Below are positions 4,510-25,989 of a DNA stretch of 64,000 bases, in pieces. Numbering within the stretch: the stretch's first letter is position 1; each line of letters opens with the position of its first letter. The notes under the pieces were generated by a model. The model had not been told where the DNA came from. It worked only from the letters and a program-made list of their open reading frames with translations, and ran no database searches. The position numbers and the translations under genes were made by a program. This DNA comes from Burkholderiales bacterium (GTDB lineage: Bacteria; Pseudomonadota; Gammaproteobacteria; Burkholderiales; SG8-39): assembly GCA_035702665.1 (NCBI GenBank), contig DASSQD010000030.1, forward strand, positions 6,036 through 70,035, read 5' to 3'.

Positions 4510-4956
4510 TTACTGGACCTTGAGCTCCTTGCTCGAGCCGTTGGCCTTCTTCGGGAGCTTCAGATCGAGCACGCCGTCGGCGTACTTGGCTTCGGACTTG
4601 CCGGCGTCGATGTCGTGGCCGAGCGTGAAGCTGCGCGACTGCTTGCCGTAGTAGCGCTCGCTGCGGACGACCTTTTCGCCCTTCTTCTCTTCCTTTTCCT
4701 TCTTGAGCTCCGCCTCGATGAATACCTGGTTGCCCTCGATCGCGACGTGGATATCCTCTTTCCTCACGCCGGGGATCTCGGCCTTGACGGTGTAGGCGGC
4801 GTCGGCTTCGGCGACGTCCACCTTGATGCGCGGCTCGAAGTCGCCTTCGCCGGTCCAGGGACGCACGCGAAAGCCCTTGAAGAAATCGTCGAAGTTGGCC
4901 AGCGGCTGGAAGCGCGCCAGTTCTTCAAACGGATCGAAACGGGTGATGTTTGCCAT
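4510..4956 (-). CDS. Hsp20/alpha-crystallin family small heat-shock protein
   Basis: ORF 4510..5160 trimmed to ATG 4956, with AGGAGA 6 nt upstream on the minus strand. Alpha-crystallin domain (AYTVKAEIPGVRKEDIHVAIEGNQVFI...GVLDLKLPK). Confidence 0.9.
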   Translation of the reverse strand: MANITRFDPFEELARFQPLANFDDFFKGFRVRPWTGEGDFEPRIKVDVAEADAAYTVKAEIPGVRKEDIHVAIEGNQVFIEAELKKEKEEKKGEKVVRSERYYGKQSRSFTLGHDIDAGKSEAKYADGVLDLKLPKKANGSSKELKVQ

Positions 4957-5037
4957 GGTGGTTCTCCTGTCGGTTCGCTGATTGCTCCCCTTGAAAGGGG
5001 GACAACTCCAATCATCTTCCAGAGGTGCGCCGCCCGT

Positions 5038-5051
5038 TTGATCTGGATCAA
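5038..5051. promoter_or_regulatory. FNR/Anr box TTGATctggATCAA (perfect consensus)
   Basis: Exact match to TTGAT-N4-ATCAA in the hsp20 / CBS-groEL divergent region. On the minus strand an ATGATT -10-like hexamer (5015-5010) sits where a class II promoter (site at -41.5) would place it for hsp20. Confidence 0.75.
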
Positions 5052-5084
5052 GACCCTCGTGCATCGCCACGTTATCGTAGAGAT

Positions 5085-5278
5085 GTGCGCGCGGCTCTCC
5101 TCCACAAGGGGGGAGCGGGCGCGGAGTTGAGGTGGCCTGAAAGCAGGCCAAAGTTCGCAACGCCTTTCGGCGCGGCGATGGAAGGAGACGGCCTCAGACC
5201 GTTCGGCGAGCGAGCTTCAAGCGCCGACCCGGGGTCTCCGCCAAGGACCCGCCCTCACCAGACGGCGGGTTCTTTTTT
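5085..5278 (+). ncRNA. Candidate FNR-dependent small RNA (~190 nt), boundaries predicted
   Basis: FNR box centred at 5044.5, TATCGT at 5073-5078, predicted TSS ~5085. Internal hairpins at 5134-5149 (GGCCTG-AAAG-CAGGCC) and 5161-5172 (CGCC-TTTC-GGCG). Ends at an intrinsic terminator (5247-5278). No plus-strand CDS lies upstream that the terminator could serve. Confidence 0.3.
5247..5278 (+). terminator. Rho-independent terminator (plus strand)
   Basis: ACCCGCC-(10 nt loop)-GGCGGGT stem followed by TCTTTTTT. The T-tract orientation fits the plus strand only. Confidence 0.65.
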
Positions 5279-5302
5279 CGTGCTTTTGGGCGCCGTGTTT
5301 GC

Positions 5303-5316
5303 TTGACCTATCTCAA
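5303..5316. promoter_or_regulatory. FNR-like box TTGACctatCTCAA
   Basis: 12 of 14 positions fit TTGAY-N4-RTCAA. Centre lies 57.5 nt upstream of the CBS-gene ATG (5367). It follows the 5247-5278 terminator. Confidence 0.5.
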
Positions 5317-5366
5317 ATCGCGTGCGAGCCCGCCTTTGTAAGCTGAACTCGGGACCTGGAGATCTT

Positions 5367-5813
5367 ATGAACATCGAACGGATCTGCAACCGCGAAGTCA
5401 CGTTGGCCTACGAGAGCGAGCGCATCGACGAGATCGCAAAGCGGATGCGCGAACAGCACGTGGGGAGCGTGATCGTCATCCCGCGCGTCGGCGGCCGCGT
5501 ACCTGTCGGCATGCTCACGGACCGCGACATCGTCGTAGAGGTGCTCGCGGCAGGCCTCGATTACCGCACCGTGACCGTCGGCGAGGTGATGAGCCGGGAA
5601 CCGGCCACCGTGCGCGAGGACGACGACGTCGTCGATGCCCTCAGGGTCATGCGCACCTACGGCGTGCGCAGGCTCCCGGTGCTTTCGCGCACGGGCATCC
5701 TCGCCGGCATCGTGGCGATCGACGACGTGCTCGAGGTGTTCGCGGGGCAGGTCGAAGACATGGTCAAGGCGATCGGCAGGGAGCAGACGCAGGAAGCGCA
5801 GGCCAGAACCTAG
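5367..5813 (+). CDS. CBS-domain-pair protein (stand-alone, 148 aa)
   Basis: ORF 5322..5813 trimmed to ATG 5367, with GGAG 6 nt upstream. Two CBS repeats (VGSVIVI...GMLTDRDIV; GVRRLPVL...GIVAIDDVL). Confidence 0.8.
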   Translation: MNIERICNREVTLAYESERIDEIAKRMREQHVGSVIVIPRVGGRVPVGMLTDRDIVVEVLAAGLDYRTVTVGEVMSREPATVREDDDVVDALRVMRTYGVRRLPVLSRTGILAGIVAIDDVLEVFAGQVEDMVKAIGREQTQEAQART

Positions 5814-5825
5814 GGAGCCTCTCGA

Positions 5826-7445
5826 ATGTCCGCGAAACAGATCGTATTCGGCGAGCGCGCGCACGCGAAGATCATGGCAGGGGTGCGGATACTCGCCGAC
5901 GCCGTGCGCGGCACGCTCGGGCCTAAGGCCCGCACCGTCGTGCTGGAGAAGTCTTTCGGCGCGCCGACCATCATCAACTCCGGCGTCGTCGTGGCGAAGG
6001 AGATCGAGCTCGAGGATCGTTTCGAGAACATGGGCGCGCAGATGGTGAAGGAGGTCGCATCGAAGACCTCCGATGTCGCGGGAGACGGCACGACCACCGC
6101 AACCCTGCTCGCCGCCGGAATCGTGTTCGAGGGGATGAAATACGTCGCCGCGGGCATGAACCCCATGGACTTGAAGCGCGGCATCGATACGGGCGTCGTC
6201 GCCGTGGTCGAAGAGCTGAAGAAGCTCGCGAAGCCTTGCAGCACGAGCACCGAGATCGCTCAGGTGGCCACGATCTCGGCCAACTCCGATCCGGTGATCG
6301 GCGAAATCGTCGCCAACGCGATGGAAAAGGTCGGCAAGGAGGGCGTCATCACGGTGGAGGACGGTTCGGGACTCAAGAGCGAACTGGAGGTGGTGGAGGG
6401 CATGAAATTCGACCGCGGATTCCAGTCTCCCTATTTCATCAACAACGAGAAGCAGCGCTGCGTGCTCGAGGACGCCTACATCCTGATTCACGACCAGAAG
6501 ATCTCCTCGATTCAGAACCTGCTGCCGGTTCTCGAGCAGGTGGCAAAGACCTCCAAGCCCCTGCTCGTGATCGCCGAAGACGTCGAAGGCGAGGCGCTCG
6601 CGACACTCGTCGTCAACATGCTGCGCGGCGTGCTCAAGACCTGCGCGGTGAAGGCGCCCGGTTTCGGCGACCGCCGCAAGGCGATGCTCGAAGACATCGC
6701 CGTGCTCACCGGCGGTCAGGTGATCGCTGAAGAGGTGGGGCTCAAGCTCGACAAGGCGACGGTGGAACAGCTCGGGCGCGCGAAGCGCGTCGAGGTCGAC
6801 AAGGACGACAGCATCCTGATCGGCGGCGCTGGTGATGCGAAGAAGATCGCCGCCCGGGTCGCAGACCTGCGGGAGCAGCTCAAGGAGACGACCAGCGACT
6901 ACGACAAGGAGAAGCTCCAGGAAAGGATCGCGAAGCTCGCCGGCGGCGTCGCGGTGGTCAAGGTCGGCGCGGCGACCGAGACCGAGATGAAGGAAAGGAA
7001 GGCACGCGTCGAGGACGCATTGCACGCGACGCGCGCGGCGGTGGAAGAGGGCGTCCTCCCCGGCGGCGGCGTCGCCTTGCTGCGCGCGCGCTCGCGGCTG
7101 GGAAAGCTGCGCGGGGACAACCCGGATCAGGACGCCGGCATCAGGATCGTGCTGCGCGCGCTCGAGGAGCCGTTGCGCCAGATCGCGGCCAACGCGGGCG
7201 AGGAGCCTTCGGTCGTGGTCAACCGCGTGCAGGAGGGCCAGGGCAATTTCGGCTATAACGCTCTCACGGACGCGTACGGCGACATGGTGCAGATGGGCAT
7301 TCTCGACCCGTGCAAGGTGACGCGCACCGGGCTGCAGAACGCGGCCTCGATCGCGGGGCTGATCCTCACCACCGACTGCATGATCGCGCAGATTCCCGAG
7401 AAGCCGTCTGCGGCTCGGCCGTCGATGGGCGACATGGACATGTAG
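5826..7445 (+). CDS. groEL: Chaperonin GroEL (Cpn60) paralogue with no adjacent groES
   Basis: 539 aa with canonical GroEL sequence ([41 protein letters not shown]). C-terminus is PSMGDMDM rather than a GGM repeat. Starts 12 nt after the CBS gene stop. Confidence 0.95.
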
Positions 7446-25203: not shown

Positions 25204-25989
25204 CTAGCGCGAGCCCTGACCCATGACCCTGCGCAGCCCCTCCGGGTCGACAATGTGGATCTCTTTCAGCTGCACGCTGATCAGCCCTTCCTCGTGGAAG
25301 CGGGAGAAGGCGCGGCTGACGGTCTCGAGCTTCAGACCGAGGTGGCTGCCGATCTCCTCGCGCGTCATGCGCAGGCTGAATTGCGAGGGCGAGTAGCCGC
25401 GCGCGGCGAACCGCTGCGACAGGTTGAGCAGGAACGTGGCGAGGCGCTCCTCGGCCCGCATCGTGCCCAGCAGCAGCATCACGCCGTGCTCGCGCACGAT
25501 CTCGCGGCTCATGACCTTGTGGAACTGGTGCCGGAACTCGTGCATTTCCTCGCTCAGGCTCTCCAGCCGGGAGTACGGGATGACGCACACCTCGCTGTCC
25601 TCCAGCGCGGTCGCGTTGAGGATGTGCAGGTCCGGCCCGATTCCGTCCATCCCCATGAGCTCGCCCGCCATCTGGAATCCGGTGACCTGCTCGCGCCCGT
25701 CCTCGAGCGTCTGCACGGTCTTGAAGAATCCGCTGCGGATCGCGTACAACGAGATGAACTTGTCCCCGGCCCGGTACAGGCACTCCCCGCGCTTCACGCG
25801 CCGGCGCGTGTAGACCAGCTCGTCGACCCGGTCGGCGGCCCGGCCGAGGAGGCCGCAGGGCAGGCATACCTCGCGCAGGCCGCAGCTCGAACAGCGGGTC
25901 GAGACCTTGGCGACCTTGGCGTATGCCGGCTCGCGCAGCGCAATGGCGGGCCTGGCAATCGAGATGGAAGCGGTTGCGGCGGTTGTCAT
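25204..25989 (-). CDS. fnr: FNR/Anr-type oxygen-sensing CRP-family transcription regulator
   Basis: N-terminal Cys cluster CSSCGLREVCLPC (C-x2-C-x5-C) plus a central Cys (SEVCVIPY). Recognition helix is ETVSRAFSRF (the E--SR motif that reads TTGAT). Confidence 0.9.
   Translation of the reverse strand: MTTAATASISIARPAIALREPAYAKVAKVSTRCSSCGLREVCLPCGLLGRAADRVDELVYTRRRVKRGECLYRAGDKFISLYAIRSGFFKTVQTLEDGREQVTGFQMAGELMGMDGIGPDLHILNATALEDSEVCVIPYSRLESLSEEMHEFRHQFHKVMSREIVREHGVMLLLGTMRAEERLATFLLNLSQRFAARGYSPSQFSLRMTREEIGSHLGLKLETVSRAFSRFHEEGLISVQLKEIHIVDPEGLRRVMGQGSR

Follow-up and report, generated by a model that had tools for sequence, protein, structure and literature searches.

In the genome of a Burkholderiales bacterium, we have identified what is very probably a real, conserved gene for a structured RNA, which is equipped with a class II promoter of the CRP/FNR type and a terminator of its own. 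The window analyzed here is the whole 64,000-nt stretch of DNA around this gene, and it is part of contig C30 in a 155-contig MAG. The RNA represents a previously undescribed structured family, with about 45 copies in stress islands of Burkholderiales. As the best overall explanation of the locus, and with somewhat better than even confidence, we propose an FNR-driven RNA gene that acts in trans as a riboregulator. The features of the intergenic region between hsp20 and CBS-groEL and of the related genes are listed in Table 1.

Table 1. Positions of the RNA gene, its structural elements, the flanking promoters and the related protein genes in the window.
Feature	Position	Strand	Remarks
FNR box 1, TTGATCTGGATCAA	5038-5051	both (palindrome)	perfect match to TTGAT-N4-ATCAA
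-10 hexamer TATCGT, RNA promoter	5073-5078	+	21 nt 3' of FNR box 1
-10-like GATGAT, putative hsp20 promoter	5011-5016	-	21 nt from box 1; assigned from geometry
RNA gene, about 193 nt	5086-5278	+	covariance-model matches of 154.9-157.2 bits; covariation
SL1	5087-5122	+	outer 5087-5090/5119-5122, inner 5097-5101/5108-5112; sequence variable; 9/9 pairs compensatory
Linker motif UUGAGGU	5127-5133	+	core UGAGG at 5128-5132 nearly invariant; complementary to 5191-5197
SL2, GGCCUG-AAAG-CAGGCC	5134-5149	+	5/6 pairs compensatory family-wide
SL3	5155-5178	+	tip hairpin CGCC/GGCG at 5161-5172; 9/9 pairs compensatory
SL4	5180-5242	+	base helix GGAGAC/GUCUCC; variable tip
SL4 internal loop CCUCAGACCG	5192-5201	+	nearly invariant
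Intrinsic terminator	5245-5278	+	core ACCCGCC at 5247-5253 with GGCGGGT at 5264-5270; stem reaches 5245-5272
Terminator U-tract TCTTTTTT	5271-5278	+	directly 3' of the core stem
FNR box 2, TTGACCTATCTCAA	5303-5316	.	CBS-groEL promoter; FNR-like; kept in 6/6 orthologous loci
-10 hexamer TAAGCT, CBS-groEL promoter	5339-5344	+	22 nt 3' of box 2
CBS-pair protein gene, 148 aa	5367-5813	+	ATG at 5367; Pfam CBS, E = 1.1e-21
GroES-less GroEL paralogue	5826-7445	+	NCBIfam GroEL
hsp20 gene	4510-4956	-	divergent from the RNA gene; from family search
FNR orthologue	25204-25989	-	NCBIfam NF008365, 233.2 bits against a cut-off of 228

An identical succession of elements, namely box 1, the -10 hexamer, about 190 nt, the terminator and box 2, is present in five other species of the window's genus, where box 2 is followed by CBS-groEL or directly by groEL. 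The spacing between box and hexamer is 21 nt in all six aligned copies of the genus. To search more widely, covariance models were made from the RNA part alone, starting at the predicted +1, and the promoter was left out. With these models, the RNA was found in 9 of the 31 genomes of the window's genus, in another genus of the same family, in a Hydrogenophaga-like genome with two copies, and in four further genera of the Hydrogenophaga (Comamonadaceae-type) family, while 150 sampled genomes from elsewhere in the class yielded no convincing match. A loose gapped pattern applied to 185,579 species produced at least 120 loci, mostly in unrelated phyla; among the matches listed, the covariance model kept three new loci, all betaproteobacterial, and none of the approximately 110 chance matches from other phyla passed it. 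On metagenome contigs, a 23-nt degenerate pattern gave 23 loci (21 full-length and two cut by the contig end), every one of which matches the model, with 27-172 bits. Since three of the listed pattern loci were accepted and all of the metagenome loci match, the family comprises about 45 copies and the covariance model is specific for it. Within the samples searched, the RNA appears to be restricted to Burkholderiales. The carriers are related and not independent, so that copy counts overstate the number of evolutionary events; nonetheless, the compensatory changes span separate lineages, including the window's genus, Hydrogenophaga and other genera. Several candidates were rejected during these searches. 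A 17-mer scan of genome contigs gave mostly chance matches, the real ones being only the four loci already known. Among weak model matches of 25-40 bits, those at L084, L088-L091, L093, L104 and L105 are terminators only, with no box, and those at L106, L107 and L263 were set aside on score alone.

The RNA folds into four stem-loops and a terminator hairpin, which together make five covarying helices. In set A3, consisting of 23 genome sequences, 92.4% of the cells are paired, compared with 42-49% in slid controls, whose 3' partners are displaced by 1-3 columns; compensatory changes are present in 42 of the 54 pairs, and none of 500 shuffles reaches any of the five covariation measures. Set A5, consisting of 21 distinct metagenome sequences, behaves in the same way (91.2% of cells paired, 40-48% when slid, 40 of 54 pairs compensatory), and the real alignment is equaled by none of 500 shuffles. 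Because both alignments had been fitted to the covariance model, we added a model-free control, in which 19 sequences were aligned by MAFFT alone and hence blind to structure. In this alignment, swaps between AU and GC (10:9, 14:5 and 11:8) are still seen in the base helix of SL4, and covariation of the terminator is evident as well. The initial annotation of this region had placed a plus-strand intrinsic terminator at 5247-5270, and this hairpin was both read in the sequence and found conserved, with 7-8 of its 12 pairs compensatory in sets A3 and A5. It had been missed in a simple terminator scan because its loop of 10 nt exceeds the maximum of 8 nt allowed there. The two GC-rich hairpins that had been noted inside the RNA are likewise present at 5134-5149 and 5161-5172, but they are more than GC-rich segments, since they correspond to SL2 and the tip of SL3. 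Conservation and covariation, which had been put forward as a check on the unit, are evident across the approximately 45 copies.

Two unpaired motifs are nearly invariant, namely UGAGG in the linker between SL1 and SL2 and CCUCAGACCG in the internal loop of SL4. Complementarity of UGAGG with CCUCA would allow at least 5 bp in 20 of 23 copies and reaches 6-7 bp in the window, L101 and L103. Compensatory variants of linker and loop occur in L083 (UGGGGGC:GCCCCCA) and L087 (UGAGC:GCUCA), three metagenome copies with a UGGGG linker are still G-U-compatible with the loop, and the G006 copy has lost UGAGG and CCUCA jointly. A column-wise covariation test of this pairing gave one compensatory cell, which is reached by 77 of 500 shuffles and is not significant. 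For this reason, we treat a UGAGG:CCUCA pseudoknot, or self-masking of the loop, as one possibility suggested by the sequences. Such a pseudoknot would add to the five-helix fold, and the resulting structure would be more elaborate than that of a typical sRNA consisting of a seed plus a terminator. As an observation in its own right, five covarying helices and a possible pseudoknot exceed what a typical base-pairing sRNA needs, and this counts against a trans-pairing view.

Class II FNR promoters carry TTGAT-N4-ATCAA about 41.5 bp upstream of the start, together with a -10 hexamer and no good -35 element. The initial annotation had reported a perfect FNR box and a TATCGT hexamer from which a plus-strand start near 5085 and an RNA of about 190 nt were expected. 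Both elements were found, and the box, the -10 and the spacing at 5038-5078 agree with a class II arrangement; its geometry gives a predicted start at about 5085-5086, a box centre at about -41.5 and a length of about 193 nt, in agreement with the expectation. Among the copies that reach far enough upstream, nearly all have a CRP/FNR-type palindrome that ends 31-36 nt before the model start, and in relatives the distance from the box to a TAnnnT or CAnACT hexamer is 21-22 nt. Since the covariance models exclude the promoter, these upstream boxes are independent evidence. Outliers in the box distance mostly reflect a shifted model start, as in L081, where SL1 is deleted; within 110 nt, no clear box was found for L177 (5 of 10 positions, gap of 56) and L282 (5 of 10 positions). 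The arrangement of box, RNA and terminator is more than chance, because the boxes are far above expectation and the unit is conserved with covariation in its many copies.

The expectation for such boxes is low. The genome contains 46 TTGAY-N4-RTCAA boxes, compared with about 2 expected by base composition, and nine of them are located on this 74-kb contig. In other lineages, 86 kb around the RNA contain 45 relaxed boxes, compared with 1.3 in shuffles. The FNR orthologue at 25204-25989 carries the Cys cluster CSSCGLREVC as well as a central Cys, its recognition motif is ETVSR, and it is the likely activator of the RNA. We consider it probable that the RNA is activated by FNR at low oxygen in this genome. 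The half-sites of the box are TTGAT/ATCAA in the window's genus, TTGAGC/GCTCAA in Hydrogenophaga and TTGCG/CGCAA elsewhere. Because of these differences, the activator in other lineages may be a different member of the CRP/FNR family, and the signal there is perhaps other than oxygen; CRP/FNR-family regulators are encoded beside the RNA in other lineages. Box 1 had been suggested to serve both the RNA and hsp20. This suggestion agrees with a minus-strand hexamer, GATGAT or GATCAT, which lies 21 nt from the box and is kept in three genomes, being conserved in G006 and G020, both of which have hsp20 and the box. The conservation of this hexamer supports a putative use of the palindrome in both directions.

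The genes around the RNA point to a common setting. The recurrent neighbours are GroES-less GroEL, CBS, BON and Hsp20, always in box-rich islands, and the islands contain Hsp20/alpha-crystallin, USP, CBS, BON, PHA synthase, HPF and extra GroEL genes together with FNR-type boxes. In the window's genus, an orthologue of the GroES-less groEL (groEL2, at least 85% identity) was found only in G000, G006, G007, G012, G021 and G022, with the RNA upstream of each. Accordingly, the presence of the RNA equals the presence of groEL2 in all six assessable genomes of the genus; in a seventh carrier, G010, the contig end falls inside groEL. The genome of the window additionally encodes canonical groES-groEL operons at two other places, one each on contigs C107 and C19. 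A GroES remnant 5' of the paralogue was considered and rejected, as the translation of the 93-aa ORF in this position is unlike GroES on inspection. Absence of the region from relatives that keep the flanking genes had been named in the initial annotation as a refutation, and this is partly the case, as G020 shows an 'empty' arrangement of hsp20, box and CBS with no RNA between them. The unit does recur in other relatives, and the arrangement in G020 marks the RNA unit as a discrete accessory module, not as an unconserved one.

We propose that a class II FNR-dependent promoter, with the box at about -41.5 and the -10 hexamer 21 nt downstream of it, would drive the RNA, and that its induction at low oxygen would be due to FNR, whose gene is 20 kb distant within the window. 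Transcription of the RNA would stop at its own intrinsic terminator, and a second FNR promoter would then start CBS-groEL. The RNA may act in trans on the surrounding low-oxygen/stress regulon of Hsp20, CBS, BON, orphan GroEL, USP and HPF. In this case, SD-like sequences would probably pair with the C-rich CCUCAGACC loop, and the UGAGG linker would perhaps mask this loop within the same molecule. As in base-pairing sRNAs, the RNA is a stand-alone, non-coding unit, with about 45 homologues. We lean modestly towards a trans-acting riboregulator, a role in hypoxia being the most likely one and perhaps analogous to those of FnrS and AniS.

A scan of this genome for complements of the loop gave no enrichment, and none of the matches is located at a ribosome-binding site. 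An AhpD-like match on C20 was discarded because it is inside the coding sequence. In the longest match centred on the loop, 5187-5206 can form 20 uninterrupted pairs with C3:12374-12393, a segment of the rho leader located 22-41 nt ahead of the start codon. This match is the second longest in the genome and one of about six comparable ones genome-wide. Its 13-mer is kept once per genome in 19 of the 31 genomes of the genus, many of them without the RNA, and in four carriers outside the genus the rho leader lacks the match. We consider the rho leader as a possible target to be a low-confidence lead.

Readings in which the RNA is not an ordinary antisense sRNA also have to be weighed. It is conceivable, though we judge it unlikely, that the RNA is a pseudoknotted sensor or particle coupled to the module of GroES-less GroEL, CBS, BON and Hsp20. 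One option within this alternative is an orphan riboswitch-like leader for a hypoxia or energy signal, and the other is an RNA partner of the chaperone and dormancy proteins. If one of these options were true, betaproteobacterial low-oxygen dormancy islands would have a structured RNA among their core components. To a related reading we assign a similarly low probability, namely that the RNA belongs to the dormancy/chaperone module as a structured RNA that binds a protein or ligand, instead of being a base-pairing regulator. Such an RNA would be a folded particle that, for example, sequesters or scaffolds an island protein, in the way proposed for 6S, Y and raiA-motif RNAs. The five covarying helices, with invariant nucleotides clustered in the linkers and the internal loop, would suit this role, and the linkage to GroES-less GroEL, CBS, BON and Hsp20 is repeated in two distant lineages; however, this linkage is equally explained by one shared regulon island. 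In the same way, the complementarity of linker and loop, with its compensatory and G-U-compatible variants and its joint loss in G006, speaks for a folded particle, but the column-wise test gives the pseudoknot no statistical support. The loop-complement scan of this genome, which yielded no mRNA target, also favours a binding RNA, against which it counts that no partner protein can be named.

On the other hand, the RNA could act in cis on the downstream stress gene, as its structured 5' leader or as an attenuator, possibly in the manner of a riboswitch. In this case, a regulated or leaky terminator would set the mRNA level of BON-CBS or groEL, and the short RNA would be a by-product. The initial annotation had regarded the unit as autonomous, with a separate FNR-like promoter for CBS-groEL. 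In the window's genus, this is correct, as the unit has its own class II FNR-type promoter and terminator, and in each of the six orthologous loci the terminator is separated from the gene by a full second FNR promoter, consisting of box 2 and its -10, which argues against a leader. Autonomy does not extend to the whole family, because in Hydrogenophaga the next gene is too near the terminator to have its own promoter. In these Hydrogenophaga-type copies, the BON start is located 28-39 nt past the terminator with no box, -10 or other promoter between them, CBS follows BON, and a GroES-less groEL lies just 5' of the RNA. Their terminators are weaker, with interrupted U-tracts (CCAUCUUGU or CCAUCUUUU), and the RNA in these copies is, judging from this layout, physically a leader. 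Similarly, the model end in G023 is 13 nt from the start of a DsrE-like gene, behind which groEL is located. Because BON and DsrE-like genes closely follow the RNA outside the window's genus, a leaky-leader role remains a real rival. The exact co-occurrence with groEL2 in the genus would also be expected of a leader, and the conserved nucleotides of the internal loop and the possible pseudoknot are reminiscent of a riboswitch; however, the helices stand in series, with no closing P1 helix around the fold, SL4 ends 2-5 nt before the terminator, and inspection of the alignment revealed no conserved anti-terminator pairing. In addition, the downstream genes are heterogeneous and functionally mixed. 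Elsewhere in the family, they include a MoxR-type AAA ATPase, a DUF302-like gene, a cytochrome c gene with its own perfect box, or genes on the opposite strand; some are 190-270 nt away and several have their own box. Taking both sides together, we regard a cis-acting leader as rather improbable.

The unit had also been taken to be non-coding, and no conserved reading frame was found across the copies, in which the start, frame and length of the ORFs (12 to 94 aa) all vary. Every ORF among the copies runs through the terminator hairpin and U-tract; for the 93-aa ORF that covers the unit in the window (5025-5306), this had already been pointed out and was borne out from the translated ORFs. Some copies share a frame M-[EK]-[TA]-[AT]-S-D-R, but its AUG is lost in others, being AAG in the window and AAG or ACG in L080, L101, L162, L087 and L102. 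Indels between close relatives are 6, 7, 10 and 13 nt long and are not all multiples of 3. Accordingly, a small protein gene, either ORF 5025-5306 or a shorter internal one, with the terminator belonging to a peptide gene, is extremely improbable: the 93-aa ORF and the recurring frame speak for it, but the inconsistent ORFs that cross the terminator, the start codon lost in the window and five other copies, the non-triplet indels and the substitutions, which are compensatory over the helices and without codon periodicity, speak against it.

The preferred reading, an FNR-driven riboregulator, can be compared with known systems. In Rfam 15, no family reached the gathering score anywhere in the window, a search of the region with E up to 10 yielded nothing relevant, and neither did searches with five divergent members at E up to 1. 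In the literature, we found no description of the RNA family or of an sRNA in lxa-type loci or Hydrogenophaga, and text searches gave nothing on FNR-dependent sRNAs in betaproteobacteria. FnrS is an FNR-activated, Hfq-dependent sRNA of Enterobacteriaceae, which is about 120 nt long, has a single-stranded seed and is represented in Rfam. Like FnrS, the RNA described here is small, stand-alone and intergenic, ends in an intrinsic terminator, is preceded by an FNR box with class II spacing, and is predicted to be induced at low oxygen. However, it does not match the FnrS covariance model and shares no homology in sequence or structure, being about 190 nt long, with five covarying helices, and found only in Burkholderiales. 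AniS of Neisseria is an FNR-activated sRNA of a betaproteobacterial lineage. Its regulatory logic is the same, and in GTDB its host falls into the same broad order, but the RNA described here is larger, more structured and tied to islands of GroEL, CBS, BON and Hsp20, and no Neisseria-like genome in the 150-genome sample of the order gave a match to it. Therefore, the RNA resembles FnrS and AniS by regulatory logic and is a member of neither, and its context is that of low-oxygen 'dormancy' islands.

Such islands are exemplified by the lxa (low-oxygen-activated) locus of Burkholderia cenocepacia and by 'dormancy' regulons of the FNR/Anr/DosR type. The gene content around the RNA is similar and also lies behind FNR-type boxes, and the RNA would add to these regulons a structured RNA component, of which a text search found no description. 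The raiA-motif RNA is an orphan structured ncRNA in Rfam. The two are alike in having multiple helices, a length of about 200 nt and a location near stress and hibernation genes; they differ in that the raiA motif occurs in other phyla, whereas the RNA described here has no Rfam match and has a defined CRP/FNR-type promoter. Finally, the Burkholderiales-1 RNA motif is a multicopy repeat of about 55 nt, with up to 33 copies per genome (Weinberg et al. 2010, PMC2864571). This motif comes from the same order and is likewise not in Rfam, and we rejected it as the same element because it has a different sequence and fold (GCACCCGUGGAACUGGCUUCGCCAGG...) and no U-tract.

To our knowledge, few lineages have yielded FNR-activated small RNAs so far, for example enterobacteria with FnrS and Neisseria with AniS. 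Such sRNAs explain how an activator can indirectly repress aerobic functions. The RNA family described here would be an independent and far more structured example of an FNR-activated sRNA in environmental Burkholderiales. Because of its clean promoter and terminator, approximately 45 homologues and strong covariation, it could be deposited as an RNA family straight away. Additionally, the RNA marks a conserved low-oxygen/stress island, with orphan GroEL, CBS, BON, Hsp20, USP and HPF, whose regulation is poorly understood. Since cultured Hydrogenophaga strains, for example sp. Root209 and ZJX-1, carry the RNA, its expression, its targets and its role in hypoxic or stationary survival are directly testable.

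The RNA unit is not a fixed part of the hsp20-CBS locus within the genus. In genus member G020 (locus L007 on G020:C256, reverse complement, in the part matching window 4942-5400), the RNA unit is absent between hsp20 and CBS, and the order is hsp20, TTGATCTGAGTCAA, TAAGCT and CBS. No groEL2 orthologue was found in G020. This arrangement is the 'empty site' form of the locus. A reduced RNA was observed in G006, where the copy L081 retains the box, the -10 element, SL2, SL3 and the terminator, while SL1 and the UGAGG linker are gone and the loop reads CCCUCACCUG in place of CCUCAGACCG. The hsp20 gene of G006 lies about 3 kb from this copy and has its own box.

In G021, a partial second copy (L085) is located 9 kb away from the full copy. 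It retains the FNR box, SL1 and AAGAUGAGG and, of SL2, the 5' half; this stretch runs directly into a lipoprotein-like gene at its SD and start. Here a duplication covers the promoter together with the initial ~75 nt of the RNA, and the duplicated segment now acts as the 5' leader of that gene. Regarding public labels, contigs L011 and L065 of this Burkholderiales genus are deposited as 'Gammaproteobacteria bacterium' and 'uncultured Enterobacteriaceae bacterium'; the latter label is almost certainly a mislabel.

Coordinates of features in and outside the window (G000, the genome of the window; C30, its contig)
Feature	Location	Strand or context
Hairpin in hsp20 5' leader	window 4975-5005	minus-strand mRNA of hsp20
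Further TTGAY-N4-RTCAA boxes inside window	8678, 13057, 18759, 21585, 28511, 30691	
Further TTGAY-N4-RTCAA boxes just before window	C30:5205 and 5240	
Complement to window 5187-5206	G000 C3:12374-12393, outside window	rho 5' leader
Canonical groES-groEL operon	G000 C107:4096-5679	
Canonical groES-groEL operon	G000 C19:29378-30967	
Partial RNA copy L085	G021:C18:184936-188010, RNA-like part at 1501-1575	minus
RNA copy L081	G006:C19:77391-77558	

The leader hairpin of hsp20 (CUCCCCUUGAAAGGGGGA on the plus strand) is placed immediately 5' of the SD. It is conserved, being also present in G006 and G020, possibly with a thermometer-like or stabilising role. The complement in the rho leader matches the RNA over 20 contiguous bp, G-U pairs included; it lies 22-41 nt upstream of the rho start codon, in a small hairpin whose loop and stem it occupies. 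The 13-mer ACGGTCTGAGGTC of this leader is present once per genome in 19 of the 31 genus genomes and is therefore conserved as a rho-leader element of its own.

The GroEL of the window has a PSMGDMDM tail and no GroES partner. Besides the two canonical operons, contig C77 of G000 carries an additional partial groEL; the window copy is the third or fourth paralogue of the genome.

The Hydrogenophaga islands around the RNA (L120 of Hydrogenophaga sp. ZJX-1; L098/L096) contain numerous TTGAGC-N2-GCTCAA boxes and encode one to two CRP/FNR-family regulators, together with a Host_attach/baeRF family 12 protein, a nitroreductase and, from two tandem genes, Hsp20. In G000, contig C30 has eight additional TTGAY-N4-RTCAA boxes; it represents 2% of the DNA of the genome but 20% of its 46 such boxes. 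The window forms the core of a regulon island of FNR, and the gene for FNR itself also lies there.
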